A stretch of 64,000 nt of DNA, from contig JBMNFQ010000001.1 in NCBI GenBank assembly GCA_050949405.1, positions 985,160 through 1,049,159 on the forward strand, in the 5' to 3' direction. The position numbers and the translations under genes were made by a program. This stretch comes from Limisphaerales bacterium. GTDB lineage: Bacteria > Verrucomicrobiota > Verrucomicrobiia > Limisphaerales > UBA1412. The notes under the pieces were generated by a model. That model worked only from the letters and a program-made list of their open reading frames with translations, ran no database searches and was not told the origin of the DNA. Of this stretch, positions 45,262 to 62,454 are shown piece after piece (position 1 is the first letter of the stretch; every line of letters starts with the position of its first letter).

Positions 45262-45340
45262 CCTTCCACTGTGCGTCCGTGGTTTCTTATGGGGGCCGCG
45301 GGTGAACACGAACAGACACTGATTGGTAGGGGGGGAAGTA

Positions 45341-45730: not shown

Positions 45731-46780
45731 TCAATTATTTTTTTCGATCTTAGTTTTTTCCTCCGTTTTTTCCTTAAAGTCCTCTACCTTTTCCGACTTT
45801 TTTTGAGGCGGAAACGACTCCGCAGGGAGAAAACGCCTGAGCAAATTGCTCTTTTGCGTGGCATTCATCTTCAGAAATTCCTCATCGGGAATGGATAAGA
45901 GGTTTTTGATATAGCTCAAATCTTTTAAAATTTTTTTCTGGGCATCATAGGACATCTCTAAAATTTTTTCGGCGTCGTTCATTTCTTTTATTTCTGAGGG
46001 AGTATACGTTCGTATGTTTTTAGAATCATTCAGACGTGTCTGAGATTTTACTATTTCTTTTAACAATTCATCAGTTGCAAGCAGCTCTTCGTAGTCCTCA
46101 GGTGTACTTTCTTTGTCTCTTATCGACAAGGGTGATGTCCGAAAAAGTGAACGTTCAGATACCCTCCATAAAATCAATTTTTTTGTACTTCCATCAATCA
46201 CAACGGTGCAGACATCTCTGGGGGTATTCGAGTCTTCATATCTAGATTTACCCTCCCATTTCACGGTGAAAATGGGTGATTTCAAAACTGTTATAGGCCC
46301 AAATTCCCCGTCTTTAGGAAAAAAGGAATATTCATGTTGCGAGATACTGTTGGTGTACCCTGATTCTAACTTTGTTATATCTACCCCACCTAGAACAAGC
46401 CAATTGGTCGCCAGCCGGTAGGCTCGCTGTTTATCGATTTTGGATTCAATTAAACACAATTCCTTTCTTCTTTTTTCAAATTCCTCTTTTCCTTTATCAA
46501 AGCTTGGAAGATAATTTTTTATTAAAAAACTACTTAAATAACCATCTGAAAAAGAAAATACGTAATTATATTTTGGAACAATAAATGACGCCCCAATACC
46601 CGTAATTTCACCTTCTTTTAAATTAATAGTGATAAAAGCTTTATCATTAAGGGTGGCGCTCGTTATGGGCGAATCCAATGGAATACCTAATGTTTCACAA
46701 AAATAAGTGGCATGAAGCGTTATGAGCATCATGGCAACAAAATTGAATGCTATATTTAATGGATGTGAAAAAAGTAACAT
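45731..46780 (-). CDS. Hypothetical protein, partner gene of the secreted protease
   Basis: 349-aa ORF starting 21 bp after the 936-aa gene; hydrophobic N-terminus. Confidence 0.75.
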   Translation of the reverse strand: MLLFSHPLNIAFNFVAMMLITLHATYFCETLGIPLDSPITSATLNDKAFITINLKEGEITGIGASFIVPKYNYVFSFSDGYLSSFLIKNYLPSFDKGKEEFEKRRKELCLIESKIDKQRAYRLATNWLVLGGVDITKLESGYTNSISQHEYSFFPKDGEFGPITVLKSPIFTVKWEGKSRYEDSNTPRDVCTVVIDGSTKKLILWRVSERSLFRTSPLSIRDKESTPEDYEELLATDELLKEIVKSQTRLNDSKNIRTYTPSEIKEMNDAEKILEMSYDAQKKILKDLSYIKNLLSIPDEEFLKMNATQKSNLLRRFLPAESFPPQKKSEKVEDFKEKTEEKTKIEKNN

Positions 46781-46801
46781 AAATTCATTAAAATTAAATT
46801 G

Positions 46802-49564
46802 TTAGTCGTAGCGGGTCAAATCCTTACAGCCAGAAATTTTCCATTTCCTCATTCCATTAAACACAGTGCCAAATATAAGGCCATCAAACGCATTAAGACA
46901 TACATCCAGAGCCTCCCCTTGCATCCAGTTCCTCCAAAAGGATGATAGTGCACTTTGATAATAGGAACTCATATAGTATCCAGACAGCCAATACTCAGTT
47001 GGAACAAGAATTCCCTTCTCCCATCCGACAAAGGCTCTCGGTTGGCGAGCACAATCCTTATAATCCTGTGCTGTACGAATAGTCCCACTTTTAATGAAAT
47101 CGACACCAAAAGCCGTAGCCATAAATTTTTCGTAAGAATAACACGAATTTAATATTGTCAATTTATAAGGGCCTTCGTTTAATTCCGGCTTCATTGAGTA
47201 TTCCATGTAATCTGATTCTGTGTTTTTATTTTTCAGTAAGGTTCGGATATCAGAAGAGTCCAGATAGCTAGTTTCTGGATTTCCGGCTATGGTACCCGAA
47301 TCAGTCCCATGGCCGAACCAGAAAAAATTACCGCTTCCAACCAGTGCGTTCGTAAGCACTCCCTTATCAACGTCGGTGTCATATCGAAAGGCCGTGGAAA
47401 CAAGGGGTGCATTAGCCGGTTCAGGCAAAACACGATATGAATGGCTCCAAACTGCGCCGTTCAAAAAATTTATAACCCCATCCCTCATCAGATCCGTACG
47501 TTGTTTTACGAAATTTTTTCCATATTCATCCCAACCCCAAGCGACTGTGAAAACATTGGGATTCTGAATAATTCCTTCCTTTCCATAAGATTTCGTTATG
47601 GTTCCCACTTGATTTGGATTAGTATCAGGTGTTCCAGGGACTATTTTAGCCTTAATTCCTCCAAAAGCTAGCTGAATGCCAGCTGCATTGCAAAGGTTCC
47701 ATCCTAACAATAGCCGCCCATCGGTAACGGAAAATACTCTCTCCGTGAGGGGGAAATCGTATTCATCATAAAGATAGACCGTATAGTGTGTTTCAGTATT
47801 GGAGCTCGACAAACTTGCGTCAATGACCAGTGTACTTGAGAAACGATCGGCCACTGGGTTAAATCTCAAAGGATTGGATAGATACACACTTTTAGTAATT
47901 CCTGCGATAATATCTTCGTCTTCATCACCATATTCGATGTACATCTGGATATCATGAACCCCATTAGTTAAGTAAGTGGTATTCCATTTAAGAACCCATG
48001 CTCCGTCTCCACGTTGTGTGAGAAAAGTATTATCTACGGGAAAACCATCTACCATCAGTCCTACCGAATTTCTATGTTCTCTTATCGTTGAAATTGCGTT
48101 TGGCAAAGGAAAATAAACGTGGCCTGACAGAGTGCTTCCGCTGGAGATAAACTGTAAGTTAAGCAGATTATCCTGCACCCCGGGATGGGTTCCCAAGAGA
48201 TATTCTGCCAGATTGTTTACACCATCCCCATCAGGGTCGCTCAACGAATTAGTGACGGAAAGATTCATTCCATAATCAAGTAACCATTGTTGGGGGATTT
48301 TTGGATCGTTTGTGCTCATTATTTGCTTAACGGTTATCCAAGACTTTAACATCCCTCCCTTACCATCCGTAACAACATATTCAAAGCGGTCGTCTCCGTA
48401 ATACTGCGGATTCCTTTCGTAGGTAATGTTGCCGCCGCTATGTGTAGCTGTTCCGTATTTTGGTGTTGTTAGCGCAAATAAGCTAATTGTGTCATTGTCC
48501 GGATCGGTCACATTAGTCAAAACGTTAAACGTTGCTGAGAAGGAGTTTGTCTGCAGGATTAAGAGAGTCGGAGCCAGTTGTTGGGGTGGATTGTTTCCGG
48601 TTTTGTTCACAAATACTGTAGTCTCTCCTATACCTTCACCTCCATATTTGTTTTCAATCAAATACAAAAAGGATTCTACTCCATAATAATTCGTGTTTGG
48701 GGTATAAAAGAGCGAAAATGGAACAGATACCCAAAATCCTTCTTCTTGATAGAAATTTTCATAATTAATTGTTCCGTATATAGGATTTGAGTATCCTGTT
48801 ATGAGAAAACTTTCATCATTTGGAGCGTGATCATTTTTTAGGATATCCAAATGGTTATAAAGACTATTCTGCTGGACCATGAAATAATCGGGCTCGGCCA
48901 CAGGAGAAATATCGACGACACGGAAAAACCCCGAAGTATACTGATCCTGTCCCAAATTTCCAATCAGTACGAAGATATTCGTTTCAGCAACGAAAGATGT
49001 CTCAAAATCCCATAAATCAGGGTTGGGGACAGAACTGGATTGGAGCATATATTCGCCGCCTGCCTTAGTGTTATGAATCAGAATAGTTGAATTGCTGACG
49101 TTGTTATTATATGCGCTAACGCCCGGGAATATTTCCAACCATAGTCCGTTTGTGTTTAACGTGGGTAAGGTGACCTGAGGCGTTCCTCCCTGGGAGCCAG
49201 AAGCCGGCAAAGGTGGTAAACTATCGGGAGTTGTCCGCATCACAGCCTCCTGGTTCTCACTCAAGGAAAACCTGGTATTGATTAATTGGGCCGCATCTTC
49301 CGGAGTGTCAGCAACCAAATATTTTCCATCGGCTCGTAAATAAACAGGTATTTCCCAATCCGAAGGATAGGGAGAACAGGGATAGGGAGGATAAATCACC
49401 CCTTTACTGTCAGCCGAGAGAAGATAAAACGTCCCCGAAGAAGGAGGGAAAACTCTTTGAAGGTTTTCATCTCCCTGAGATGTTTGGGCTAAAGCACACA
49501 GTTGGAATATCACAGCCGAGAAAAAAGCGATGAAAATCTTTTTGTTTTGTGTTCTGGTTTTCAT
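46802..49564 (-). CDS. Large secreted protein: cadherin/Ig-like repeats, TSP3-like Ca motif, C-terminal clan CD (caspase/gingipain-like) peptidase
   Basis: Signal peptide from ATG 49564; TDPDNDTI/TDGKGG Ig repeats; DPDGDGVNNLAEY; FWFGHG ... LTILNSCYS His/Cys dyad, AFVGW. Confidence 0.75.
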   Translation of the reverse strand: MKTRTQNKKIFIAFFSAVIFQLCALAQTSQGDENLQRVFPPSSGTFYLLSADSKGVIYPPYPCSPYPSDWEIPVYLRADGKYLVADTPEDAAQLINTRFSLSENQEAVMRTTPDSLPPLPASGSQGGTPQVTLPTLNTNGLWLEIFPGVSAYNNNVSNSTILIHNTKAGGEYMLQSSSVPNPDLWDFETSFVAETNIFVLIGNLGQDQYTSGFFRVVDISPVAEPDYFMVQQNSLYNHLDILKNDHAPNDESFLITGYSNPIYGTINYENFYQEEGFWVSVPFSLFYTPNTNYYGVESFLYLIENKYGGEGIGETTVFVNKTGNNPPQQLAPTLLILQTNSFSATFNVLTNVTDPDNDTISLFALTTPKYGTATHSGGNITYERNPQYYGDDRFEYVVTDGKGGMLKSWITVKQIMSTNDPKIPQQWLLDYGMNLSVTNSLSDPDGDGVNNLAEYLLGTHPGVQDNLLNLQFISSGSTLSGHVYFPLPNAISTIREHRNSVGLMVDGFPVDNTFLTQRGDGAWVLKWNTTYLTNGVHDIQMYIEYGDEDEDIIAGITKSVYLSNPLRFNPVADRFSSTLVIDASLSSSNTETHYTVYLYDEYDFPLTERVFSVTDGRLLLGWNLCNAAGIQLAFGGIKAKIVPGTPDTNPNQVGTITKSYGKEGIIQNPNVFTVAWGWDEYGKNFVKQRTDLMRDGVINFLNGAVWSHSYRVLPEPANAPLVSTAFRYDTDVDKGVLTNALVGSGNFFWFGHGTDSGTIAGNPETSYLDSSDIRTLLKNKNTESDYMEYSMKPELNEGPYKLTILNSCYSYEKFMATAFGVDFIKSGTIRTAQDYKDCARQPRAFVGWEKGILVPTEYWLSGYYMSSYYQSALSSFWRNWMQGEALDVCLNAFDGLIFGTVFNGMRKWKISGCKDLTRYD

Positions 49565-49796
49565 ACTGAAAAATTCCTTACTATTACACTCGTTAACTAA
49601 CGATAGCATCATTCCAATTTTTTGTCAAGCGACTTGGTATTTTTTTGTTCTTGTCGTGCTCTCCTAAAAGCTACTCAGTTGAAATGCAAGGAATTCTACC
49701 TCTGTTTCTATTCTTTTATCGGTTGGTTTCTAGCGTAATCATCTGTTTTTTCGACTTTTTCTAAGATAGACGATAGATTTAATCTTGTTCGGGTTC

Positions 49797-49955
49797 CTAC
49801 TCTTCTTTTTTCTTTTTTCTGCGTTGGCGTACGGCATTTGAGAGAATATGCTCTATCTGTCCGTTGACCGAACGAAATTCCTGTGCCGCCCAGCGCTCGA
49901 GTTCTTCCCAGAGCTTGGGGTCCATCCTGAGTAAAAATGATTTACGGGGTGCCAA
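49797..49955 (-). CDS. Arc/ribbon-helix-helix small DNA-binding protein
   Basis: TTG start; MAPRKSFLLRMDPKLWEELERWAAQEFRSVNGQIEHILSNAVRQRRKKKKEE* (52 aa, below the ORF-track cutoff); typical neighbour of SPFH genes. Confidence 0.8.
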   Translation of the reverse strand: MAPRKSFLLRMDPKLWEELERWAAQEFRSVNGQIEHILSNAVRQRRKKKKEE

Positions 49956-50006
49956 TGTGCTTAATTATCGTGTGCTGGTAAAAGGAATCGCTCCATCGGG
50001 ATTGTA

Positions 50007-51005
50007 TCAGTGATAGAGAGTTCCGGTGTTGACGACGGGTTGAGCCTCGGAATCGGAGCAGAGGACGACCAGAAGGTTGCTGACCATGGCGGCTTTGCGC
50101 TCATCGTCCAGCTCGATTACATTTTTGCGGGAGAGTTCTCCCAGGGCCATTTCGACCATGCTGACCGAACCCAGGACGATTTTCTCTCGAGCCGCGATGA
50201 CCGCTTCGGCCTGCTGGCGCCGAAGCATGACGCTGGCGATTTCCGGCGCATAGGCCAGATGGTTGAGGCGGGCTTCCTCGATCACGACCCCGGCCCTGTT
50301 GAGTCGGTCCTGGAGCTCCGCCTGGAGCGCCACGGAGATTTCGGCGGCGTTGCTGCGCAGGGTGATCTCTTCCTGTTCATGCTCTCCGTCATCATAGGCG
50401 TAAGAGGTGGCCAGATGGCGGACGGCGGATTCGCTCTGAATGGTTACGAACTGCTCGTAATCATCGACATCGAACATGGCTTTGGCGGTATCTTCCACGC
50501 GCCAGACGATGACGGCCGAGATTTCAACCGGGTTGCCCCGCTTATCGTTGACCTTGAGTTTTTCGCCATTCATGTTGCGTGAGCGCAGGGAGATTTTATT
50601 GCGGCTGGCGCTTTTGAGATTGCGTTTGGCGGCCAGAGAGCCGACCGAGGGCGTCGGCGTGGTTTCAGCGGTGGCGAGCATTCTTCCATTGGAGTAAAAT
50701 GGGTTGCCCCAATGGAAGCCGGTTTGGCGTACCGTCCCGACGTATTTACCGAAGAGAATGAGGACGCGTGCCTGATTGGGCTGCAGGGTGAAGAACCCGG
50801 GCAGGATCAGTGAAAAGAGGAGAGCTTCAAGAAGAGCTCCCGGGATGATTATAGAAGGACCTTGCATCCTGATTCCGAAAATCATCATGAGAAGTGCAAA
50901 AACGACAGCGAATAAAAAACAGACGAGTACGAGCCATCCGTTCATTACGTGAATTTCTTTTTCGACGCTCGTAGTGAGCTCTTTGAGAGGTAGGTTAGTT
51001 TTCAT
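50007..51005 (-). CDS. SPFH/band 7 domain membrane protein
   Basis: N-terminal TMs, [33 protein letters not shown]; start set at ATG 51005. Confidence 0.92.
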
Positions 51006-51116
51006 AGTAGTGATAATGGTGTATGTAGCCGTCAGTCGGCGACATATCAAAATGATATCACTTTTCAGAAAAAAAAGGCAAGAGCGCAGGCGCGTTTTTT
51101 TAATTTTTTTACGCCC

Positions 51117-52229
51117 TTATTTCCACTGGAAGTAGAGGATGCGGACATCGCGGGCTGAGACGCGGTGAAGCATGGAGGAGAAGACGCGCTCCTGGTCGCC
51201 GACCCGCGCGCGGACTTCGACCTCGAAGACGGTACTGCGGACTCCGCAGAAGGCGCCGATCTGCTGCACCAGGCTTGGGGGCATTCCGGGGATTTGCTGG
51301 AGCATCCCGACGCCGGTGATCATGACGTCGTCTTCGGTGCCCTCCACGTCGTCGAGCCCACGGCGATAGGTGATGATTTCGTTGGCGATTTCCGGGGTGA
51401 CGCCCGGGAGCATCCGGAGGACTTCCGCCGGTGCGGTATTGATGTTGAGCGTGCCGGAGGAGAGAGTGCAGAAGAGGTCCATGAGGCCGCCTTCGAAGAT
51501 ATTTTCATCCGCGTAGTGTCTGCCGATGCGGATTTCGTCGGGGTCGATGTAGGTACTCATTGGCGAGCGGCCTTCGAGCCTGGCGATTCCGTAGTAGAGC
51601 TCCGGGCTGACGCCCTGGATCATGAGCAGCTCCGAGATATCATCGAGCGGTCCATTCTTGCAATAGTAGGGCGGGTCCAGGCCGAGGTAGTACTCGTCTT
51701 CGGCGCCGCTCAGTTTGGCGTTGTTATCGGTATCGCGCCAGTCGAGGACGGAATCGGAGATGGTGCTGGCGAGGGTGGAATCTGCGCCCAGGACGGCAAG
51801 CGCGTTTTCCAGGAGAGCCGCCGTAGCGGTATTGATATTCATCTTGCGTTCATTATCGGTGATGGAGACCGAGAAGATGCCGTTGCCGAGCTCGTTATCT
51901 TCGAGGAAGACGAATTCCAGGAGGTCATTGGTCTGGCCGGGGCCGCCGGCCCATTTTTGGTTCAGCGCGTCGCAGGGTCGGTTGAGATTGAGCTGCTGGC
52001 CGACGACATAGCGGGCCAGTTCCACACCGGAGCGCCCGAGCCACTCGAGCTCAGAATCGCTCAGGTGGTTATTGGCCAGCTTCATCTCCACTTTCATGAA
52101 CCAGGCGAAGCCAGCCGTCATGGTTCCCAGAACGATGATGACGACCAGGACGATGATGAGGGCGATACCGCTCTGGGGAGTGGTCGCTCTGGCATTGTTT
52201 GCCGGTTGTTGAAGAGGTATTTGCATCAA
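51117..52229 (-). CDS. gspK: Type II secretion minor pseudopilin K
   Basis: SGIALIIVLVVI, DNERKMNIN, DSVLDWRD, NGPLDDISELL, LNINTA. Confidence 0.9.
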   Translation of the reverse strand: MMQIPLQQPANNARATTPQSGIALIIVLVVIIVLGTMTAGFAWFMKVEMKLANNHLSDSELEWLGRSGVELARYVVGQQLNLNRPCDALNQKWAGGPGQTNDLLEFVFLEDNELGNGIFSVSITDNERKMNINTATAALLENALAVLGADSTLASTISDSVLDWRDTDNNAKLSGAEDEYYLGLDPPYYCKNGPLDDISELLMIQGVSPELYYGIARLEGRSPMSTYIDPDEIRIGRHYADENIFEGGLMDLFCTLSSGTLNINTAPAEVLRMLPGVTPEIANEIITYRRGLDDVEGTEDDVMITGVGMLQQIPGMPPSLVQQIGAFCGVRSTVFEVEVRARVGDQERVFSSMLHRVSARDVRILYFQWK

Positions 52230-52250
52230 GAGTCCATCCTTTTTTGCCGG

Positions 52251-53246
52251 TTAGCGTCTGCCACCTCCCGGGCCTCCGGGCATCGGGGGACCGCCTCCGC
52301 CCGGGTTAAACCCACCGCCGGGCCTTCCACCCTGCCCGCTACCGGGTCCAAAACCGCCGCCGGGCCGGCCGCCTCCGCCACCGCCGCCGGATCCCCAGCC
52401 TCCTCCCTGAGCGCCTTGGCCGCCGCCGGGTCGACCGCCGCCGCCCATGCCGGGTCGGCCTCCCTGACCACCCTGGCCTCCTCCCTGGCCGCCTTGACCG
52501 CCGGGACCACCCTGACCTCCTCCCTGAGCGCCCATGGTCATGCCGCTGGAGACGGTGCCCTGGATTTGCGGGTCGATGATAGTGCCGCTCATGGCGACGA
52601 CGCGTGAATCGAGCTGGGCCGGTTCATTGCCGACGTAGCCGTGCCCCATCGAGACGCGTGCCAGTTGCGGCAGCGTATTGGTGTTTTCCCAGTCCAGGAC
52701 CCAGTCCAGCTCATTGGTATCCCAGAACTCGACGGCGAAGAACGAAATATCGGTGGAGAGCTCAATAGGCGGGATGAGGTCGGTATACTCCTCATCGATC
52801 AGGAGCGGATGCTGGTAGAGGATCAGGGAGTTGCGTCCGCTTTCATTGGCTTCGACGACGTAGGTGAGCCGTCGCAGGGGCAGGCCGTCATAGAGGCCGC
52901 TGCCGATAAACCCCGGCGGCAGATAGGCCACGAAGGAGAGGGCCGAGTAGTCGCCGTCGTTATCGACTTCAAAGCTGTAATAATTGGTGTTGGCCCGGAA
53001 CATCCGCGCGGACATCAGCGATTCGCTCAAGGCGCGCATTCCGACCCGTGTCCGCTGGGTTTCTTCGGCGGCAAAGCTGGCCGATTGTTTGCCCATGAGG
53101 ACGAGCGACCAGATTTCATAAATGGAGGTCAGGATCAGAGCGAAGATGAAGATGGAAATCATCACCTCCAGGAGGGTGAAGGCACCTCGGCAGCGCCGCT
53201 GCGGGGCCTGGGCTCTGATTTCGGGATTGTTCATTTCTTCAAGCAT
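52251..53246 (-). CDS. gspJ: Type II secretion pseudopilin J-like with Gly-rich tail
   Basis: GAFTLLEVMISI prepilin motif; W...NTLP C-terminal motif; position before gspK. Confidence 0.75.
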   Translation of the reverse strand: MLEEMNNPEIRAQAPQRRCRGAFTLLEVMISIFIFALILTSIYEIWSLVLMGKQSASFAAEETQRTRVGMRALSESLMSARMFRANTNYYSFEVDNDGDYSALSFVAYLPPGFIGSGLYDGLPLRRLTYVVEANESGRNSLILYQHPLLIDEEYTDLIPPIELSTDISFFAVEFWDTNELDWVLDWENTNTLPQLARVSMGHGYVGNEPAQLDSRVVAMSGTIIDPQIQGTVSSGMTMGAQGGGQGGPGGQGGQGGGQGGQGGRPGMGGGGRPGGGQGAQGGGWGSGGGGGGGRPGGGFGPGSGQGGRPGGGFNPGGGGPPMPGGPGGGRR

Positions 53247-53264
53247 GTTTTGCCTTTCCTGCGT

Positions 53265-53687
53265 TTATCTTCCCAGGATTGATTCGGGTCGGTAGAGCCA
53301 GAGGCTCATCATGGTGGAGTCGCGTCCGCCAAAAGCGCCCGGGTGATAGACCTCCACATCGACCTGGAAGAAGCCGTTGGTGCTGACTTCATAAGCTTCA
53401 CGGGTCCAGGACCAGCCCGGGTACATATCGCCAAAATCGCCCGATTCGACGACCTCCTCCAGCCGGTTGGTCGCCAGCATGTCATAGACGACCTGCGTGA
53501 AATCAATCGGGGTGACGTTGAGGGAGTGCGCCGCCCGCAGGTTGGTATTGAGCAGCTCCATGATCGAAAAATAGGCCATGAAAAAAATCGCCATGGCGAC
53601 CATGATCTCCAGGAGGGTGAAGGCCGGCGCCAGAAACGCCCAGCCGGCTGCCGAGTAATCGCGGGAGTTGTTGATTGTGATTTTCAT
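53265..53687 (-). CDS. gspI: Type II secretion pseudopilin I-like
   Basis: AFTLLEIMVAMAI; small; position in H-I-J-K order. Confidence 0.7.
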   Translation of the reverse strand: MKITINNSRDYSAAGWAFLAPAFTLLEIMVAMAIFFMAYFSIMELLNTNLRAAHSLNVTPIDFTQVVYDMLATNRLEEVVESGDFGDMYPGWSWTREAYEVSTNGFFQVDVEVYHPGAFGGRDSTMMSLWLYRPESILGR

Positions 53688-53705
53688 CAGCCGCTTTTTC
53701 GGGGG

Positions 53706-54335
53706 TTAGAATTCGATGCCGCCTCTCCTGCGGCGGAGCGGGTTCTTGGGGGTGGCCAGCTCATTGAGGTTATCAAAATCGGCCAGACCGGTGACGATAT
53801 CGACCGTTACGCGCCGGAACTCGCCCTGCCAGGAGAGGACCACCGTCAGAAGGTCCGCCGTGCCGTTGGGGAAGAAGCGCGAGATGACCAGGTCGTCATC
53901 CATATGCTCGGTCATGTTGACGTCAAGCATCTCGATCTCCACCTCGTCATGGAGTCTGTACTGGTCGCTTTTGTAGGGGGCTCCCCTCATGGAGCTTTGG
54001 GGGGCTGAACCGGTTGAGAGCGTGGCCGCATTGCCCCAGTTGATCGATTCGTTGATATCGCGCGGCATCTCCTCCACCTGGAACGTATATTCATAGGGGT
54101 GGAACTTGAGCACCATCGGGGTGCAGCGGAGAATGGCCGTGGCGCGTGCCTGGGCGCAGGCCTCCACCAGGTCCGATACGCTTTCGGTGAGGGGGTCGCG
54201 CTTCTGGATGGCGCGGAAGACGGCCGGGATACCAATGCTGCAAAGGACGCTGATAATCCCCATGACCACCATCAGCTCAATGAGCGTGAAGGCGGCGTTG
54301 CATGGCGGGGATTTCTTTGGCGTCAATGCTCTCAT
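53706..54335 (-). CDS. gspH: Type II secretion pseudopilin H-like
   Basis: AFTLIELMVVMGII; RFFPNG motif. Confidence 0.7.
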   Translation of the reverse strand: MRALTPKKSPPCNAAFTLIELMVVMGIISVLCSIGIPAVFRAIQKRDPLTESVSDLVEACAQARATAILRCTPMVLKFHPYEYTFQVEEMPRDINESINWGNAATLSTGSAPQSSMRGAPYKSDQYRLHDEVEIEMLDVNMTEHMDDDLVISRFFPNGTADLLTVVLSWQGEFRRVTVDIVTGLADFDNLNELATPKNPLRRRRGGIEF

Positions 54336-54341
54336 GGTCGG

Positions 54342-55619
54342 CTAGCGGTTGATATTGGAGGTGAGCGAGAACATGGCCGAGAGAATACCCAACAGGATGA
54401 AGCCGACAAAGAGCGCCATCGTGATGATGAGAATCGGCTCAATCAGTGTGGTCATGAGCCGCAGTGCCGTCTGGAGGTCATCCTCGTAAGTTTCGGCCAG
54501 GCTTTGCAGGGAGTTGGGGATATCGCCGGTCTCCTCGCCAATCTTGACCATATCGATCATCAACTGCGGGAAGACGCCGCTCCTTGCCAGCGGCTGGGCG
54601 ATTGTTTTGCCATCGGTGACCGCTTCGCGGGTATCGGCGATGGCTTTCTGGAGAATGACGTTGTCTATGACCAGCTCCGTGATTTTGAGCGCGACCAGAA
54701 CCGGGACGCCATTCTGCATCAGGGTGGAAAGGGTGCGTGAGAACTGGGCAAAGAGGTTCATGCGCACCGCGTTGCCGATAACGGGGGCATTCATCTTCCA
54801 GCGGTCCCAGGCGAGGCGCCCGCGTACCGACTGGATGTATCTGCGGAAGAGCATGATGACCGTGAAGATACCGATCAGGACGGCCCACCAGTAATGTTTA
54901 AAGAAGGTGGAGCTATCCATCAGAAACTTGGTGCTGGGCGGCAAGGGAGCATTCATGCTTTTGAAAATCTCCATGAACTTGGGCATCATGACGGTCATGA
55001 AGAAGAAGATCACCGCCAGGCCGACGATGACCACCACGGTCGGGTAAACCATGGAGCTCTTGAACTTGCTCTGGACCTCCGCGAAGCGCTCATAGTGGGC
55101 CGCCAGGCGCTTCAAGACCTCCACCAGGGCGCCGCTTTGCTCGCCAGAGCGGACCATGTTGATGAACATGTTGGAGAAGATCACCGGCTGGCGGCTCATC
55201 GCTTCAGAGAGGCTCTTGCCTTCGACGACATCCTGCTTGAGCTGGCGGCTGACATCGGTCGGGATGCCTTTGCTGCCGACATAGGTCATACTGTTGAGGG
55301 CGGCGGTGAGCGGCATACCGGCCCTGAGGAGATTGGCCAGTTGGTTGGCAAAGTTGGCCAGCTCTTTCATGGCCGGTCTTTTCTGGCGAGTGAAGTAATC
55401 GCGCATTCCCTGCGGCAAAAGGTTGAGGAGGCCGCTGGTGCTTTGGCTGCCCCGCAGGCTCCGTGCTTTGCCTTTTCCTTTTTTGGCAGGCTCGATCGAT
55501 ACGGGCAGGAGCCCCTGCTTTTGCAGTTGGGCCAATGCCGCCATACGATCGGCTGCTTCCAGCACCCCTTGAATGGCGGTGCCGTTTTTCTTACGCGCTT
55601 TATAAACGAATTCTGCCAT
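54342..55619 (-). CDS. gspF: Type II secretion/T4P inner-membrane platform protein F
   Basis: LANLLRAGMP, MVRSGEQSGAL, MVKIGEETG, LIEPILI. Confidence 0.92.
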   Translation of the reverse strand: MAEFVYKARKKNGTAIQGVLEAADRMAALAQLQKQGLLPVSIEPAKKGKGKARSLRGSQSTSGLLNLLPQGMRDYFTRQKRPAMKELANFANQLANLLRAGMPLTAALNSMTYVGSKGIPTDVSRQLKQDVVEGKSLSEAMSRQPVIFSNMFINMVRSGEQSGALVEVLKRLAAHYERFAEVQSKFKSSMVYPTVVVIVGLAVIFFFMTVMMPKFMEIFKSMNAPLPPSTKFLMDSSTFFKHYWWAVLIGIFTVIMLFRRYIQSVRGRLAWDRWKMNAPVIGNAVRMNLFAQFSRTLSTLMQNGVPVLVALKITELVIDNVILQKAIADTREAVTDGKTIAQPLARSGVFPQLMIDMVKIGEETGDIPNSLQSLAETYEDDLQTALRLMTTLIEPILIITMALFVGFILLGILSAMFSLTSNINR

Positions 55620-55651
55620 CGTCAGTCCTTGTTTGAAACACCCATTTTGGG

Positions 55652-57850
55652 CTAAAGTTGCTCTTTCCGGGCTTTGGGCTCCTGCTTTTCATCTTCTTTG
55701 GGCCCGGCTGGCTCAGTTGGGTCTGGCTCGGTGGGCGCTGGGAAAGAATCGACCGGCGGAGGCGGTGGAGCCTCTTCAACCGTCGCTTTGAGCGGAGGCG
55801 CCATCTGGGGAACCTCCAGCCCCAGAAGCTCATAAAACTTCTGGGAGTCGAGCATCTCCTTCTCCAGAAGCTCGCTGCAAATCAGCTCGAGCTGCTCTTT
55901 GTGGTCGGTCAAAATTTTGCGGGCATGGGCGTAGGCGTCGTTCAGGAGCCTCAGGACCTCCTGGTCGATGATCCGCGTCGTCTCCGGACTGCAATCAGTG
56001 CGGAAGCCGCCCTCGGCACCGGAGAACATCCCGTGGTCCGGCTGGAGGCAGTGAGCCAGTCCGATCGTCTCGCTCATGCCGTACATGCAGACCATCTGGC
56101 GCGCGAGCGAGGTGGCCCGCTTCAAGTCGTTTTCAGCTCCGGTCGAGACCTCCTGGAAGGTGATCTCCTCGGCAGCGCGTCCACCCAACAGGCCGGCTAT
56201 GCGCGCCATCAGCTCTGAACGGGTGAGGATGAATTGATCCTCGGGCGGCACCTGCATGGTATAGCCCAGGGCGGAGCGGCCTCTGGGGACGATGCTGATT
56301 TTCTGGACCGGGTCGCAGTTCTGGTCATAGGCGGCGATGAGCGCATGGCCGGCCTCGTGAATGGCGACGCGGTGGAGCTCCTTTTCGCGGAGACGGCGGC
56401 TCCGGCGCTCGGTGCCGGCAATGACTTTCTCGATTGCCTCCTCCAAGTCCGATTGCGCAATGACCGAGGAGAGCCGTCTGGCGGCCAGCAGTGCGGCTTC
56501 GTTCAAGGTATTGGCCAGGTCAGCCCCCGAAAAGCCGGGAGTACTCTGGGCCACACGCCGCAAATCGACCTCGGAGGCCAGCGGTTTGCTGCGGGAGTGG
56601 ACCTTGAGGATCGCCTCGCGGCCATCCAGGTCAGGCGCATCGACGACGACCTGCCGGTCAAAGCGGCCCGGGCGCAACAGCGCGCGGTCCAGTACATCGG
56701 GCCGGTTGGTGGCCCCCAGGATGATCACCCCGGCATTGGTCTCGAAGCCATCCATCTCCACCAGGAGCTGGTTAAGGGTCTGTTCACGCTCATCATTGAC
56801 CGAGCCCATGTGGACGCCCCGCTGGCGGCCGATGGCGTCGAGCTCGTCAATAAAGATAATGCAGGGAGATTGCGCCTTGGCCTGCTGGAAGAGGTCACGC
56901 ACGCGGGCCGCGCCGACCCCGACGAACATCTCGACAAAATCACTGCCGCTCAGAGAAAAGAAGACCACTTTGGCCTCTCCGGCCACGGCGCGCGCCAAAA
57001 GCGTCTTACCGGTCCCGGGCGGCCCCACCAGCAGGACCCCTTTGGGTATCTGCGCGCCCAGGGCCTTGTAGCGGGCCGGGTTCTTCAGGAAATCGACCAC
57101 CTCCTGGAGCTCGTACTTGGCCTCGTCGCATCCGGCTACGTCGGCAAAGGTGACGCCGGTCTCCTTATCGGCGGAGACTCGCGCCTTGGATTTGCCGATG
57201 GAGAGAATCGACTGGCCGCCCATGCCGATTTTGCGTGAAATAAAAATCCAGAGCCCGATCATCAGCCCAATCGGCAATACCCAGACCAGCAGGAACTGCT
57301 CCAGGAAGCTCGGACGGCTGCCGAGGAACTTGGCGCCGCTCTTCTCGAGCTCTTCAATCAGCCGCGTATCTGCATCGACGCGAATGGTGGTAAACGCGAA
57401 AACGCCTTCAGGGTCGCTCTGTTTGGAAAAAAGCCTGGAAAAGGGGCTCTGTGGCAGATGAATCTGGGGGTCCACCGCTTCCGCGAGCGGTGCATTGGTG
57501 GCTGCCGGAGCCGTGGCTGCCGTGGATGAAGAGTCTGCTCCGGAACCATCTTCCACCCTGAGGCCGGAAGCAGGCGCCGGTGCCTCCGCTTTTTGGAGAG
57601 CGATCTTGCCGGTGATCCGCTCCTGGCTGATGAGGCACTCGATCACCTCGCCGCGGGCGACATGCTTCTTGAATTCACTGTAAGGGATACTTTTGGAGCC
57701 CGTGGAGCTCATCACCTCCTGCCAGAGGATGAGAATGAGCAGCGCTGCCAGAACGTAGCCCATCGAGAAACGCCAGGGTGGCTTCTCCTGAGGGGGCCGA
57801 CCGCCGCTCTCTTTGCCGGGTTTATTCTTCTTTGGAGGTATCATATCCAT
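55652..57850 (-). CDS. ftsH: ATP-dependent zinc metalloprotease FtsH
   Basis: Two TMs, [28 protein letters not shown]. Confidence 0.97.
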
Positions 57851-58033
57851 TTTCCCTTCTTTCGGTTGCGCTACCGGACTGAAACTCTACTCCATAATAG
57901 GACAAGTGCAAACCTATTTATAACCGGATAAGCTTTTGAGTGAGGAAGAAAGACCCACCCCTCGAAAAAATCCCCACCCGTTAAAAACCACCAAATCAAA
58001 ACAAAAAATCCGCCAGAGGAGGCAGGTACAAAT

Positions 58034-58353
58034 ATAAGGTATGCGGAGCAATAAGGTATGCGGAGCATACCCATAACATAGCCAGGGGTCATAGACCCCT
58101 GGTAGGGAGGTAGTAAAGATTCCCCCCCGACCCCGCAAGGGGTCGCATCCCATCATCCGTATGATAAAAAATGGGTAAATTCATGGTTTTGGGGTGATCG
58201 TTTTTTATTGGGCGTGTTGTTTTTTGAGTGTTGGCTGCGACCCCTCTGGGGTCGTCTGTTTGGTGGGGGGGATGGGTACCAGGGGTCTGAAGACCCCTGG
58301 CTATAAGATGGCATCCCTCCGGGATGCTTGAGAATGGTACGCTCCGCATACCT
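58034..58353. repeat. REPIN/BIME-like palindromic element
   Basis: Two homologous arms in inverted orientation (AGGTATGCGGAGC ... CCAGGGGTC-n-GACCCCTGG ... CGACCCC-n-GGGGTCG) around an AT-rich spacer; 17-bp tandem duplication at 58034-58067. Confidence 0.85.
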
Positions 58354-58422
58354 CATGTTTGTATGCCCCCCTGCAAGGCGTTAAAAAGAGAGGTGTGCTC
58401 CGTATACATGATGTTTACCTCA

Positions 58423-58458
58423 TTCCCTTTTCGGTGCGAATATTTTTGAGGCAATGCG
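58423..58458 (+). promoter_or_regulatory. 36-bp upstream motif, copy 1
   Basis: TTCCCTTTTCGGTGCGAATATTTTTGAGGCAATGCG, identical to 62259-62294. Confidence 0.55.
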
Positions 58459-58538
58459 CGAAGAGACAAAAATGAAAAGAACTCTTGACAAAACATGAAA
58501 AACGTGGTTTTGTGAGGTGTCTTAGTTTGACGAATAGT

Positions 58539-61445
58539 ATGTTAAAATCAAAGATCGCCCTTAAAATTGGTTTGGTTGTTGCCTTGGGTGTTTCCGCAGG
58601 ATACATCTCTTACTCCATTGCTCAGAACAATACTTCACTGCGGTTATCGGAGTTTAATTGGAAAACCATTTTGGATAATGTTGTAGATGCAACACCCCCT
58701 CTTCTTGCTGAAGAAATGCCTAATTTTGGGACTTTTTATTCGGCTCAATTTGGTGAATATATGCCTCCGCTTCCTGCCAACATTTTTGGGCTTCCTTTTT
58801 GGCCACTAGGTGATGGGTTTTACATAGTGGACGATCGTCAAGTAGATTATGATCTCTTAAATGCTGAGCCTGTATTAAATACATCTTCCTCTGACGGAAA
58901 TCGTTCTTCTGTTTCATCTGTTAGAAATACTCTTTCTAACGATGATGCTTATGGACAGATCCCGTATATGACCAATGTTTCGATTTTTCTTCCGACAACT
59001 AATTCTATCGCTTTCCAATTTGATATTGCCGGTGGAGTAAAAAATGTTCCTTATGATATTTTTAGAGGCGTGGAACTGGAAAATGCTGGAACAAACGTTG
59101 AAGCAGATATTTCTGATTGGACTTGGGTTGGTATTGGTTATGCTATGTCTCATTATATTTTTACAAATACTCTTTCAGATCAAGCATATTATGCACTAGC
59201 TAAACCAACTCAGACACACGTTTTCGGTTGGGGCAATAACGAAGTAGGTCAATGCGATGTTCCCCTTGATATCGCTAATGCAGTTATGGTTTGCGGAGGA
59301 GGTGGTCAAAGTCTGATCCTGCTTAATGATGGTACCGTGCGAGCTTGGGGACAAAATGCCAGCGGCCAGGGAAGTGTTCCCTCGGGTCTCTCTGAAGTAG
59401 CGCAAATTACCTCGGGCTGGTACCACAACGTGGCTCTTCGCGCAGATGGATCGATAGTTTCCTGGGGAAATAATACCTATGGACAGTGTAACGTCCCTTC
59501 CGGGTTGAATAGTGTCAAACTGATCTCTGCCAATGCGAACTACTCAGTGGCCCTCAAAACTGACACAACTGTGGCTGTCTGGGGCTTTACACCCAATAAT
59601 GAAAACGACATTCCTAGCGGTCTTACAGGCGTGGCTGCAATCTCTGCGGGGCCTTCTCACGTTCTGGCAGTACGTACCAATGGAACCGTCTCCGCGTGGG
59701 GCAGCAAAAGTGGTGGCAAATGCAATGTTCCTGCAGATTTGACCGATGTCGTTGACGTAGCCGCAGGGGTTCAGCACAGTCTGGCTCTTCGTGCAAATGG
59801 AACAGTGGTTGCCTGGGGCAAAAATGCCGATGGTGAATGTGATGTTCCGGCAGGCCTCACAAATGTAGTTGCCATCGCAACGGGCGGGAACCCTCTTAAT
59901 ACGACAAATTACCAGCCTTGGTCCATCGCTTTGCTCAGGGATGGAACGATAGCCAAATGGGGAAGCGGAGCTGTCGCAGAAAACTCGGACTCTTTTGATA
60001 ACATCATTGCTATTGCTGGTATTGGTCCTCATGCCTTGGCTCTGAGAACTGGTCCTAACACCCCGGTTGCCACAGTCACACCCGCTTTGCAATACAAACT
60101 CCAGGGTTCTAGTGCAACCATCTCATGCTCAGCAAATGGATTTGGAAGCAGCCTGACCTATCAATGGAAACACAATGGAACCAACATTGTCGGTGCCACC
60201 AATGCCACGCTCACTCTTTCAAATCTCCAGCCATCTCAATCGCATACTTACAGTGCCCTAGTGACAAGCAGTGTTGGAAGTTCTCTTACCTCCGACAGTA
60301 AGCTTTATATAATCACCCCTCCGGTAATTACTTCTCGCACTCCATCTACCAATCCTGTAATTTCGTTGGGGCAGTTGCTCTCTCTCAGCGTTACTGCTGA
60401 AGCCCCTTCTACAAATCTCTTCCCTATCAATTATTACTGGCTAAGAGAAAATTGGCTTTATCCTTTAGCATCAAATGGACGTTCCAGTTGTATTGTAACG
60501 GGTTATTTTTCAAATCCAAAAGTATACTCTGTGATTGTCTCTAATGCAGCAGGAACTACATCAGCAAATTGGTCTATCACCACGACGTCCGAAGGGACAT
60601 ATGCCGATGAAGGAACCTTGGCACACTATCTAGCGACCAATACGTTGTCCCATGCCTCAGGTAAAAGCTTAGCTAGTAACGGGCTTTTGTTAAATAACTG
60701 GCCATCTGGAACCGTAACAAATCATCCAACAAATCTTGGATATCTTTCAAATCTGACTTGGTCCACAAATTGCTGGCTTTCTGGCGTGCAAGGTCTTAGT
60801 GCAACTTCTATTGCAGCGGAGACAAGACACTCAGGACAAGCATTGGTGACCATGATATCACCCATTCACTTCATCAGAGCGTGGCATACCAGCAAATCCG
60901 CACATCCAGGTTCCAGTAACATCGTCTTTTTGAGTTCGAACAATCAACTTTATTGGAGAACCATATGTGAACAAACTCAAATTGAGAACACTGATATTAC
61001 TGTCGGAATTTTGAATTCAGAACTTCCAACTTCTGTTGGGTACTTACCTATATTGCCGGATAATTACTTCAATTACCTACCAACTAACAGCACACATATT
61101 ATTCAACAAATTGGGATGAACCAATATATGCGTGTGTTCAGCCAACCTTCATGGTTTGATTCTCAAATGTCTATTTACTGGGATCATACTTTGGAAGTGC
61201 CTTTCGGTCTCAGTTCAGAATGGAATATTAAGTTAACTACTGGAGACTCGTCCGCTCCAGAAAGGCTTTTAATAAATAATCAGCTTGTTTTATCAAGTTT
61301 CCACACTGGTGTACCAGCTGGACCAAATATTATTTATTTCAAAAACCAAATAAACGAAATAATGACTTCTCTTTCAGAGAGTTATAGCAAAAATAATTAC
61401 CAGGTTGAACAAATGCAATTAATTGGATTTAATCAATTATATTAA
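58539..61445 (+). CDS. Large secreted protein: RCC1/BLIP-II propeller, Ig domains, C-terminal trypsin-like serine protease
   Basis: N-terminal hydrophobic signal; about 7 GTVxAWGxNxxGQCxVP repeats; YQWKHNG Ig domain; ISPIHFIRAWH / TDITVG / TGDSSAP triad-like motifs. Confidence 0.8.
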   Translation: MLKSKIALKIGLVVALGVSAGYISYSIAQNNTSLRLSEFNWKTILDNVVDATPPLLAEEMPNFGTFYSAQFGEYMPPLPANIFGLPFWPLGDGFYIVDDRQVDYDLLNAEPVLNTSSSDGNRSSVSSVRNTLSNDDAYGQIPYMTNVSIFLPTTNSIAFQFDIAGGVKNVPYDIFRGVELENAGTNVEADISDWTWVGIGYAMSHYIFTNTLSDQAYYALAKPTQTHVFGWGNNEVGQCDVPLDIANAVMVCGGGGQSLILLNDGTVRAWGQNASGQGSVPSGLSEVAQITSGWYHNVALRADGSIVSWGNNTYGQCNVPSGLNSVKLISANANYSVALKTDTTVAVWGFTPNNENDIPSGLTGVAAISAGPSHVLAVRTNGTVSAWGSKSGGKCNVPADLTDVVDVAAGVQHSLALRANGTVVAWGKNADGECDVPAGLTNVVAIATGGNPLNTTNYQPWSIALLRDGTIAKWGSGAVAENSDSFDNIIAIAGIGPHALALRTGPNTPVATVTPALQYKLQGSSATISCSANGFGSSLTYQWKHNGTNIVGATNATLTLSNLQPSQSHTYSALVTSSVGSSLTSDSKLYIITPPVITSRTPSTNPVISLGQLLSLSVTAEAPSTNLFPINYYWLRENWLYPLASNGRSSCIVTGYFSNPKVYSVIVSNAAGTTSANWSITTTSEGTYADEGTLAHYLATNTLSHASGKSLASNGLLLNNWPSGTVTNHPTNLGYLSNLTWSTNCWLSGVQGLSATSIAAETRHSGQALVTMISPIHFIRAWHTSKSAHPGSSNIVFLSSNNQLYWRTICEQTQIENTDITVGILNSELPTSVGYLPILPDNYFNYLPTNSTHIIQQIGMNQYMRVFSQPSWFDSQMSIYWDHTLEVPFGLSSEWNIKLTTGDSSAPERLLINNQLVLSSFHTGVPAGPNIIYFKNQINEIMTSLSESYSKNNYQVEQMQLIGFNQLY

Positions 61446-61464: not shown

Positions 61465-62055
61465 ATGAGAAAAAATATTATAATAGCGGGGATCGCAATT
61501 CTAACATCGATCTTTGCGGTTTCCACTCACGCCCAAGGCAAAATCCTCCCTGCGGGAATATGGGATACTGGAATGGGATATATCGGAGTTTGCTTTTTGC
61601 GTCCGGAAAATCCGAATTTTGACGAAGAATTCACGGGATTCGCTTTTCTGGGCGGCACCTCATATGACATACTCCTTAATGGGGGTATTCGTACATTCTA
61701 TGCCTCTAAAGACGACGTCTTTACGCTTAATTCCATTCAATCGGGAACCTTCACTGAATTGAATCCGTATGGCGATCCAAACTCGCCACTGAAGGGTGAG
61801 TTTTACCTCGCGATTTACTCGGGCTATCCCAATTACGGCAACCCGGAAGATCCTTATTTCCAAGACCCTCTTTACGGCTGGGCTCTTCTGAATAACGATG
61901 GAAAATCAGTTTCCCTGGTAGATAGCGCATTAGGCTATGGAGCCGATGGGATCATCGTCGGTACGACGGTAATGGTTCCCGAGCCGGGGATCTTGGCACT
62001 TTGGGGGCTGGGAGCAGGGCTGCTTACGATGTACATCCGTCACAGGCGCTCTTGA
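61465..62055 (+). CDS. PEP-CTERM (exosortase-sorted) protein, paralog 1
   Basis: Signal peptide; C-terminal VPEPG + TM + basic RHRRS. Confidence 0.92.
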   Translation: MRKNIIIAGIAILTSIFAVSTHAQGKILPAGIWDTGMGYIGVCFLRPENPNFDEEFTGFAFLGGTSYDILLNGGIRTFYASKDDVFTLNSIQSGTFTELNPYGDPNSPLKGEFYLAIYSGYPNYGNPEDPYFQDPLYGWALLNNDGKSVSLVDSALGYGADGIIVGTTVMVPEPGILALWGLGAGLLTMYIRHRRS

Positions 62056-62305: not shown

Positions 62306-62454
62306 TTCGCGCTTTTCCTCTTGTTTCCGAAGTTGTTATTCGTTACCATACGCATATATAGATTGATCGTGTGCCCAACCGAAAGTCTCCACCGGCGACC
62401 TTGCTGCGCGGAGCCTATCGTTGGGCAGGTATTAACAAACAAAAAAAGATAAAA

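Follow-up and report, generated by a model that had tools for sequence, protein, structure and literature searches.

We have analysed a window of 64,000 nucleotides from a Limisphaerales bacterium of the Verrucomicrobiota (assembly GCA_050949405.1, contig JBMNFQ010000001.1, positions 985,160 to 1,049,159), and in particular two large genes of this window, which encode the proteins P0001 and P0002 (P-, L- and G-numbers are our labels for proteins, loci and genomes). These proteins are predicted to be Sec-exported multidomain peptidases of two Limisphaerales-wide families, called family A and family B here. P0001 is composed of a signal peptide, the head domain described below, a beta module, cadherin/Big_9 domains, a TSP3-like segment, an Ig-like region and a predicted clan CD peptidase domain. 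P0002 is composed of a signal peptide, the head domain, a beta module, an RCC1 propeller, two Ig domains and a predicted S1-fold peptidase domain. The shared part of the two proteins is one domain of about 55 residues located directly after the signal peptide, and nothing else is common to both. Each large gene is followed by partner genes of its own, P0003 behind P0001 and two PEP-CTERM genes, the first of which is P0004, behind P0002 (Table 1). Seven genes lie between P0001 and P0002, encoding a Band_7 protein, type II secretion system (T2SS) protein K, three pseudopilins, T2SS protein F and FtsH. Both large genes are located in stretches with a GC content of 0.36-0.44, whereas the flanking genes have 0.55-0.64; the genome mean is 0.51, and about 11.5% of the 2-kb windows of the genome fall below 0.45. 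An earlier note on this DNA, made from its letters alone, had described the two genes as lying in AT-rich islands on either side of a T2SS/ftsH cluster, and this description was borne out. The source organism is present in biogas-fermenter, anaerobic-digester and landfill metagenomes.

Table 1. Features of the two peptidase genes and their partner genes (positions in the window; ORF, open reading frame)
Feature	Position	Strand	Details
P0003, family A partner	45731..46732	-	333 aa from Met17; ORF to 46780, 349 aa
P0001 ORF	46802-49612	-	936 aa; likely start Met17 at 49564; gene 46802..49564
P0001 predicted Sec signal peptide	49484..49564	-	residues 17-43, MKTRTQNKKIFIAFFSAVIFQLCALAQ; read from the sequence
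P0001 head domain	49259..49459	-	residues 52-118, GTFYLLS..PPYPC..IPVY..DGKYLVAD; profile A5 4.3e-18
P0001 first beta module	48905..49171	-	residues 148-236, NGLWLEI..GGEYMLQSS..FFRVVD
P0001 recombination junction	48878..49015	-	residues ~200-245; upstream 100% P0011, downstream 100% P0008
P0001 cadherin-like/Big_9 domains	48329..48895	-	residues ~240-428; Pfam Big_9 5e-22, Cadherin_5 1.3e-10, Cadherin_4 4.6e-8
P0001 TSP3-like DPDGDG segment	48182..48304	-	residues 437-477
P0001 predicted clan CD peptidase domain	46805..47560	-	residues 685-936; putative dyad His768 (47309-47311), Cys824 (47141-47143)
P0002 ORF	58485-61445	+	986 aa; likely start Met19 at 58539; gene 58539..61445
P0002 head domain	58692..58877	+	residues 70-131, GTFYSAQ..PPLPAN..LPFW..GDGFYIVDDRQVDY
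P0002 beta-sandwich module	58956..59225	+	residues 158-247
P0002 RCC1 propeller and two Ig domains	59232..60584	+	RCC1 residues 250-510, Ig residues 527-700; Pfam
P0002 predicted trypsin/chymotrypsin-fold peptidase domain	60717..61442	+	residues 745-986; putative triad His801 (60885-60887), Asp837 (60993-60995), Ser922 (61248-61250)
P0004, first family B PEP-CTERM partner	61465..62055	+	196 aa; Pfam PEP-CTERM 23.0 bits, cut-off 20.7
Second family B PEP-CTERM partner	62452..63051	+	ORF from 62371; 41% identical to P0004; PF07589 23.5 bits, cut-off 20.7

The motifs GTFYLLS..KYLVAD of P0001 (residues 60-102, nt 49307-49435) and GTFYSAQ..FYIVDD of P0002 (residues 82-117, nt 58728-58835) were found where the earlier note had placed them. 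Comparison of the two N-termini alone was not sufficient to establish homology: BLASTP gave E=0.08, phmmer did not connect them, and hhalign of two small genus-level N-terminal profiles gave a probability of 44% (P=2e-4), which is suggestive at most. The homology was decided by the relatives rather than by the pair. A P0002-type N-terminal profile led to P0007, an intermediate protein from another family of the same order (CGTFYLLSD..PPYPC..APVYQIEDNLFLVDD); searched phylum-wide, this profile gave one real match, within the same order, and noise elsewhere. A combined profile of 64 positions matched proteins of 200-1,600 aa in about 19 genomes from many families of the order (1e-5 to 1e-11), and the motif came after a signal-peptide-like N-terminus in all of them. 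Bridging sequences were matched at the same place by profiles made only from P0001-type and only from P0002-type sequences, as in L076 (1.7e-8 and 1.8e-5). Finally, a hidden Markov model (HMM) made of 26 sequences from outside this genus was searched against the 17,344 six-frame ORFs of the source genome (2.74 Mb). This out-of-genus HMM matched exactly three ORFs, P0002 (4.3e-17), a full-length P0001 paralogue at C1:1418128-1420953 (8.1e-11) and P0001 (1.1e-10), all of them just behind the signal peptide, and the next-best ORF followed at 0.11. The earlier note had proposed such a search, and the N-terminal similarity on which its claim depended proved significant by profile. Based on the out-of-genus HMM and the bridging sequences, the shared N-terminal domain of P0001 and P0002 is confirmed at the level of sequence. 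Both proteins continue with a second beta-rich module, as had been described; the homology of these modules was rejected (hhalign probability 0.2%, cross-HMM E>0.1).

The head domain has the consensus P..GTF[YW]S.Q....[WY]PP[LFW]P.N....LP.[WY].[LI]G.G.[FY][LIV].DD..VDY and is often followed by an Ala/Glu-rich helix and a low-complexity linker. The search for known families in this region (residues 45-240 / 60-245) gave no match in Pfam-A 2025 at E<=10 or in NCBIfam 20.0 at E<=0.1, and no described equivalent of the motif was found in the literature for Limisphaerales, Pedosphaerales or Verrucomicrobia, which agrees with the earlier suggestion that the motif could be undescribed. In PADLOC, too, the head domain had no match, and the two peptidase domains and P0003 were matched neither there nor in Pfam or NCBIfam. 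When the head-domain profile was searched against a set of 1.84 billion representative proteins, it matched at least 1,284 clusters with E<=1e-3, 412 of which reached E<=1e-10. The best 150 of these clusters have the domain, with few exceptions, at residues ~40-130; their matches begin at ~40-70 or at a later position among the first ~200 residues. Of 301 sampled Limisphaerales genomes, 92 carry the domain, each in 1-9 copies, and these carriers represent 50 of the 137 genera; class- and phylum-wide searches showed that it is almost absent outside the order. Where the matches belong to named genome records, these are all Verrucomicrobiia, subdivision 3 or Limisphaerales metagenome-assembled genomes (MAGs), and a contig search with a narrower head-domain alignment gave seven loci, all in Verrucomicrobiia MAGs.

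The payloads behind the head domain are of many unrelated types, which agrees with the earlier observation of a conserved N-terminus on varied architectures. They include Peptidase_S8 subtilases (three), Alginate_lyase2 with LamG, an IgGFc_binding-like domain, PA14 with an SGL/NHL propeller, a DUF900 hydrolase, Calx-beta, Glucodextran_B with Big_13, TSP3, cadherin/Big_9 and RCC1 with Ig. Among 52 long high-scoring carriers, RCC1 (11) and Glucodextran_B (9) were the commonest, and many carriers had no Pfam domain at all. Most carriers are adhesin-like or degradative exoproteins (subtilase, alginate lyase, alpha/beta hydrolase) and not toxins. Within the families, the head domain is optional: it was seen in 7 of the 29 relatives of family A and in 40 of the 60 of family B, many of the 20 head-less family B relatives being truncated gene calls. 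In the family A proteins P0015, P0016 and P0018, the signal peptide leads straight into the beta module, and some other proteins carry two tandem head domains with about 50 low-complexity residues between them. The AlphaFold2 (AF2) model of P0045, a short family B member of 542 aa, shows the head domain at a predicted local distance difference test (pLDDT) score of ~90, with a helix at 41-51 and strands at 65-68, 87-91 and 94-97, followed by a segment with pLDDT <50. This model confidently predicts that the head domain folds autonomously, as a short helix, a Pro-rich stretch and short strands with a low-confidence linker behind. We also observed a 174-aa ORF at L017 (G006:C3, 9115-9636) that consists of only a signal peptide and a B-type head domain and is flanked by unrelated PEP-CTERM genes; it could represent an orphan head or else a family B gene cut short.

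At E<=10, Pfam gave no match in the N-terminal 200 or the C-terminal ~280 residues of P0001 or P0002; it matched only the Big_9/cadherin domains of the former and the RCC1 repeats and Ig domains of the latter. For P0001, database relatives begin at Met17, and family A members without a head domain start with its type of beta module. The TSP3-like segment gave a weak NCBIfam match to Amuc_1099_fam (proteins of a pilus-like system; 1.8e-5, below the cut-off), which probably reflects only a shared Ca-binding motif. The C-terminal domain gave no Pfam match at E<=10 (CHAT, Peptidase_C14 and C25 included) and no match among the PDB sequences. Its AF2 model (residues 660-936, 28 sequences) reached a pLDDT of 86.9 and a predicted TM-score (pTM) of 0.87. 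In Foldseek, this model matched first SAVED-CHAT (8tl0, 9e-8) and then separase, caspases, metacaspase, legumain and GPI transamidase. The motifs FFWFGH768G and LTILNSC824 are invariant in the 28 sequences, and in the model the strands 103-107 and 159-163 precede the His and the Cys. According to this model, the P0001 C-terminus is a CHAT/caspase-fold clan CD cysteine peptidase that sequence models do not recognise. This domain has 29 relatives with 35-60% identity, and all of them have cadherin/Ig or no Pfam domain upstream.

A side observation concerns L014 (G006:C10, 2119-4341), a 741-aa frame that opens with ~280 residues similar to the tail of a P0003-type partner. Behind these come a head domain and a family A-like body, which stops early and of which a remnant continues in the next ORF. 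L014 is probably a decayed or rearranged cassette.

For P0002, the AF2 model of a short family B variant shows strands across 131-239, the region of the beta-sandwich module. The RCC1-Ig block is absent from the short variants, P0045 and a 555-aa ORF of G002: P0045 is 85% identical to P0039 over residues 3-245 and 71% over 243-537, with about 455 residues missing between. The peptidase domain of P0002 gave no Pfam match at E<=10 (Trypsin models included) and no PDB sequence match. The fold was modelled on the homologue P0045, which is 48% identical to P0002 in this domain; in Foldseek, the P0045 model gave 512 PDB matches at E<=1e-3, the top 50 of which were all S1 proteases, with TM-scores on the target of 0.5-0.6 for plasmin, thrombin, trypsin and elastase. 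In 45 sequences, the putative catalytic residues occur in the order His-Asp-Ser, His and Asp being invariant and the Ser of GDSS.P at least 90% conserved. Based on this model, the P0002 C-terminus is a trypsin-fold serine peptidase domain. It has 60 relatives, most of which have the RCC1+Ig+S1 arrangement. The Pfam domains, the predicted folds and the invariant catalytic residues thus agree with the architectures first read from the DNA, cadherin/Ig with a cysteine protease and RCC1 with Ig and a serine protease.

An identical 36-bp element (TTCCCTTTTCGGTGCGAATATTTTTGAGGCAATGCG) is located at 58423-58458 and 62259-62294; these two copies precede P0002 and the second PEP-CTERM gene by about 80-160 bp. 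The genome holds 13 copies at <=6 mismatches, 12 of which lie 70-170 bp upstream of ORFs with an ATG start. We rejected it as a feature specific to this system, since at least 12 genes of diverse kinds (PEP-CTERM, secreted, membrane) are preceded by it; probably it serves a single regulon as a promoter or regulator site.

The partner genes differ between the two families. P0003 begins with a hydrophobic anchor or signal, continues with a variable core and ends in a conserved tail (NLLSIPDEEFLKMNATQKSNLLRRFLPAESFPPQKK); no family match was found in Pfam, NCBIfam or PADLOC, and a P0003-family profile found nothing in the PDB sequences. Partners of this type have about 335 aa, and their cores are 36-44% identical. 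P0003-like genes follow the family A genes in the paralogue, in G005, G007 and L086, and in the distant L102 and L103, which lack the head domain. We also observed that the C-terminal tail of these partners is almost invariant, NLLSI[SP]DE[ED]FLKM[DN][AE]TQKSNL..RF..[PA]ESFPPQKK, and coincides with the 3' crossover zone described below.

Family B genes are followed by two tandem P0004-like genes of ~200 aa in L100, L101 and L089 and by one in L015. In the window, both such genes carry PEP-CTERM. The genome holds two Exosortase_EpsH genes above the cut-off, and by their PF07589 scores P0004 and the protein of 62452-63051 belong to the PEP-CTERM type, which is characterised by a C-terminal PEP motif, a transmembrane helix and a basic tail and goes with a genomic exosortase. 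Outside the window, a third P0004-like PEP-CTERM gene was observed at C1:581458-582066. Its N-terminus is that of P0004 from MRKNIIIAG on, with five extra leading residues, and it is preceded by the 36-bp element and has no family B gene adjoining; it looks like a recent duplicate.

The earlier note had seen a different downstream partner behind each gene and had proposed that C-terminal domains and downstream genes be tabulated. The domains were compared over the 29 and 60 relatives, and the downstream genes at the loci named above. The partner families track the body family and not the head domain, and P0003, of no known family, and P0004, a PEP-CTERM protein, are both conserved order-wide. 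These results support that each peptidase family has its own order-wide conserved cognate partner genes.

In two biogas-fermenter metatranscriptomes, the contigs break at the unit boundaries. One RNA contig (45000-49623) covers P0003 and P0001 at a depth of 22-27, others (58535/58639-62140) cover P0002 and P0004 at 87-101, and another (51077-57571) covers T2SS and FtsH at 34-38, contig depth being a poor measure of expression. DNA contigs run unbroken through 45040-58081. Since each large gene and its partner are on one RNA contig, the data fit co-transcription of each large gene with its partner.

The family A locus is where the polymorphism of this system was observed. A contig in the European Nucleotide Archive (ENA) from a close strain (97.8-99.2% DNA identity over the aligned stretches), the one contig from which a tandem form is known, carries two tandem units between Band_7 and aconitase: P0011 with a 336-aa partner, then P0008 with a 333-aa partner. 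P0001 of the window is 100% identical to P0011 over residues 17-240 and 100% identical to P0008 over residues 241-936. P0003 is 100% identical to the 333-aa partner and shows 36% and 43% identity to the partners of other bodies. Accordingly, P0001 is a crossover product between two tandem N-terminal regions, or the tandem is the reverse product. The N-terminal regions of the two tandem units are ~88% identical, their bodies ~40% and their partners 36%, and at the DNA level they have in common only the 5' part and, within the conserved tail of the partner, 128 nt with 87.5% identity. The hybrid form in the window is safe, since independent DNA contigs of 12.7 kb and 13 kb and the RNA contigs span it.

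A configuration that may reflect a comparable exchange was observed in G005, a different species of the genus. Its flanks are ~70-90% identical to the ENA contig, whereas a stretch of ~3 kb that begins near residue 257 of the large gene and reaches to the partner tail is 100% nucleotide-identical. The N-terminal region of this gene is of the other type. Its partner p1, 98% identical to the ENA 336-aa partner, is paired with body type 1, and an extra partner gene p2 behind it is a possible orphan. The assembly graphs of other samples are interrupted in the N-terminal region, at unitigs of raised depth, and the cassette is one contig ending in the partner tail. In run X28, a different stretch of ~2.1 kb replaces the ~3.1-kb body-plus-partner between the N-terminal region and p2, and the sequence can be read as a third body type. 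Taken together, strains exchange body-plus-partner cassettes of ~3 kb at the family A locus; the proteins of different cassette types are ~40% identical, and the crossovers are at the end of the N-terminal region on one side and in the conserved partner tail on the other. With the hybrid, the tandem, G005 and X28, the P0001 locus behaves as a polymorphic cassette locus, in partial support of the polymorphism read by the earlier note. On the other hand, the swapped protease tips of that note were not found: the catalytic type is fixed in each family, and the whole body of ~700 residues varies between strains. The clan CD domain and its invariant residues are common to the C-termini of all family A body types, the N-terminal regions being 88-100% identical and the bodies ~40%. 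Because conserved DNA stands in front of otherwise divergent genes, we consider the family A N-terminal region a homologous-recombination arm. In addition, a body is always linked to its own partner, which implies an allele-specific interaction between the two, in which the partner could be an inhibitor or immunity protein, an anchor, a substrate or an activator.

Apart from these genes, two kinds of repeat were observed in the window. A dispersed repeat of ~180-290 bp with terminal inverted repeats (ACCACGGATAGACACGGATGAACACGGA), resembling a miniature inverted-repeat transposable element (MITE) or a repetitive extragenic palindromic (REP) element, is located at 44991-45280, ~35200-35320, 37754-37937 and 63092-63282; BLASTN gave 41 matching segments at roughly 20 loci of the genome. 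Since copies stand at the outer edges of the islands, they bracket an 18-kb block of the two low-GC islands and the T2SS/FtsH cluster. Read on the minus strand, a GC-rich imperfect tandem repeat at 52344-52532 would give Gly/Pro-rich repeats; it is part of the pseudopilin ORF 52251-53246(-), where the frames overlap with the ORF 52226-52510.

Considering these results, we regard it as probable that the head domain is a docking or sorting module that also acts as a recombination arm and that heads two exported peptidase families with cognate partners. The head domain would dock or anchor the exported proteins, or sort them after Sec export, and so hold or route them at the cell envelope, following the logic of a dockerin, an SLH (S-layer homology) domain or a sorting tag but placed at the N-terminus. 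In family A, the conserved N-terminal region and the partner tail would serve as the arms between which body and partner are exchanged together. Docking, anchoring or sorting accounts best for the features of the head domain, which keeps one place behind the signal peptide, is predicted to fold by itself, is set off by a flexible linker, sometimes occurs in tandem and precedes unrelated payloads. These features speak less for a cleaved propeptide or for a T2SS signal.

Several points weigh against this reading. No receptor, processing enzyme or co-occurring gene of the head domain was identified, and docking or sorting is the role that we infer for it. With 1-9 copies per genome, and with two thirds of the order lacking it, the head domain is unlike a general sorting signal. 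Its high pLDDT could stem from packing on another domain. In terms of the exchange, the breakpoints may only mark the most similar paralogue DNA and not a selected function, and the combination in G005 could be a MAG or assembly chimera; in three samples, the 3' end of the cassette continues with letters that do not match G005 and are read as the ENA type. Contig depth, moreover, says little about expression.

Polymorphic toxin-immunity systems offer another explanation, in which the head domain is a trafficking module, the peptidases are toxins delivered to competitors and the partners confer immunity; the exchange of cassettes would then diversify the toxin-immunity pairs. We consider this explanation unlikely on the whole; it is most plausible for the family A cassette only, where it stays a serious rival. 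On the one hand, divergent body-plus-partner cassettes stand in tandem and form hybrids between strains, the body is always accompanied by its own partner, with a possible orphan partner gene in G005, and one cassette is fully identical in nucleotides inside diverged flanks. The low-GC DNA and the patchy distribution within the genus point in the same direction, and Tox-Caspase with Imm57 is listed among polymorphic toxins (PMC3482391). On the other hand, the catalytic type never changes within a family, and the body diverges evenly rather than at its tip alone. No RHS, FilH, LXG, PT-type/PT-VENN or other trafficking or pre-toxin domain was found with Pfam, NCBIfam and PADLOC, and the carriers of the head domain are mostly enzymes or adhesin-like proteins. 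Two PEP-CTERM surface proteins, the family B partners, are unlikely to be immunity proteins, and for the family A partner the large size and the hydrophobic N-terminus argue against such a role. The operons, too, are both conserved across the order, even where the head domain is missing. Of the polymorphic toxin logic that had been suggested for these genes, the shared N-terminus, the linked partner and the cassette polymorphism at P0001 are borne out, whereas a variable toxin tip and known trafficking domains were not found and most carriers are not of a toxin type.

It is improbable, in our view, that the head domain is a secretion-targeting signal read after Sec by the T2SS, another outer-membrane translocon or a periplasmic chaperone. 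Its constant position directly behind the signal peptide and its payloads, which are typical exoproteins, would suit such a signal, and a T2SS cluster lies between both genes here and in the close strain. However, this linkage was found only in this genus: no T2SS homologue stands near 36 carrier loci outside the genus (267 kb in all), and we rejected the T2SS synteny as a conserved feature; the T2SS as the export route, at which the earlier reading had hinted, is not supported. Family members without the head domain keep their architecture and signal peptide, tandem duplication would be unusual for a targeting signal, and only a third of the genomes of the order carry the domain. A cleaved propeptide, intramolecular chaperone or inhibitor that keeps the enzymes inactive is very unlikely. 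Several payloads are peptidases (S8, S1-fold, clan CD) and a flexible linker lies behind the head domain; yet the domain is also found on adhesin-like proteins that are not enzymes, on a lyase and on hydrolases whose folds are unrelated, is at least 600 residues away from the catalytic domain in P0001 and P0002, and occurs in tandem copies. A chance or compositional resemblance of two Pro-/aromatic-rich N-terminal stretches, which the pairwise BLASTP and phmmer results would have allowed, was refuted by the clean gap below the three ORFs of the out-of-genus HMM, by the bridging sequences that join both families and by the 1,284 clusters, and its remaining probability is negligible.

Returning to the head domain as a docking or sorting module, we can extend this reading into a speculation to which we give only a small probability. 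The head domain might be the docking half of an order-specific surface-display system, a counterpart of cohesin-dockerin, that mounts interchangeable exoproteins on one envelope receptor. The family A cassettes, with a cadherin stalk, a CHAT-type peptidase and an allele-matched partner, might then be polymorphic modules of self/non-self recognition or antagonism, exchanged between co-resident species of digester flocs via the head region and the partner tail as arms.

Subdivision 3 Verrucomicrobia are abundant in soils, fresh water and anaerobic digesters, and few of them have been cultured. To our knowledge, how they route or hold large exoproteins is largely unexplained beyond PEP-CTERM. A head domain on more than 1,000 clusters of unrelated exported proteins provides a testable handle on envelope sorting or display in this lineage, and it could readily be entered as a new family in the curated domain collections. 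At the family A locus, nature provides a compact case of cassette exchange with fixed arms, involving a secreted, predicted caspase-fold peptidase and its partner. If the family A pair were a toxin-immunity or recognition pair, the phylum, the effector context and the partner family would all be new for such systems.

In comparison with known systems, the P0001 locus resembles the polymorphic toxin systems (CDI, Rhs, MafB and others; Zhang et al. 2012, PMC3482391), in which CDI stands for contact-dependent inhibition, in its conserved N-terminal part, variable remainder, tightly linked downstream gene, tandem recombining cassettes and caspase-type peptidase. Unlike these systems, the families of P0001 and P0002 have a fixed catalytic type, a body that varies as a whole and no demarcated tip; they also have no known trafficking, repeat or pre-toxin domain, and their partners are exported, with PEP-CTERM in family B. 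In terms of exported sorting tags, PEP-CTERM/exosortase, GlyGly-CTERM/rhombosortase (PMC3237569) and the C-terminal domain of the type IX secretion system are, like the head domain, short conserved tags on unrelated exported proteins of one lineage. Unlike these C-terminal signals, the head domain is N-terminal, is a folded unit of ~55 residues instead of a transmembrane helix with a motif, is low in copy number, has no identified processing enzyme and coexists with PEP-CTERM proteins in the same operon.

The peptidase domains can be compared with known ones in the same manner. The clan CD peptidases (SAVED-CHAT 8tl0, separase, caspases, legumain) have a fold like that modelled for the P0001 C-terminal domain (Foldseek 9e-8 to 1e-3), and P0001 likewise has an invariant His-Gly and a Cys after a conserved hydrophobic stretch. 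Bacterial CHAT proteins known so far are mostly cytoplasmic defence effectors. Unlike known clan CD peptidases, the P0001 domain is predicted to be secreted, ends a cadherin/Ig stalk and has a dedicated partner that is likewise predicted to be exported. The S1 peptidases share with P0002 the modelled fold and the His-Asp-Ser order with the GDSS.P motif, whereas the P0002 domain has no Pfam Trypsin match, comes after an RCC1 propeller and Ig domains in its protein and has two PEP-CTERM genes downstream. By analogy, family A may also be likened to TraA/TraB of Myxococcus, which combines a variable surface receptor that bears adhesin-type domains with a linked partner and with allele-specific pairing; no homology is expected, and family A adds a peptidase domain.

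The dockerin of the cellulosome, SLH domains and carbohydrate-binding modules are small anchoring or docking modules on exoproteins. The head domain is likewise small, is joined by a linker to unrelated payloads including proteases, is sometimes duplicated, and is lineage-restricted with few copies per genome. Unlike these modules, it is N-terminal, has no sequence or Pfam kinship with them and has no dockerin-type Ca-binding repeat, and unlike the dockerin it has no identified cohesin-like partner or ligand. Judged from the sequences, what appears to be new is the head domain itself, together with a variant of the known theme of a conserved head, a variable payload and a linked partner.

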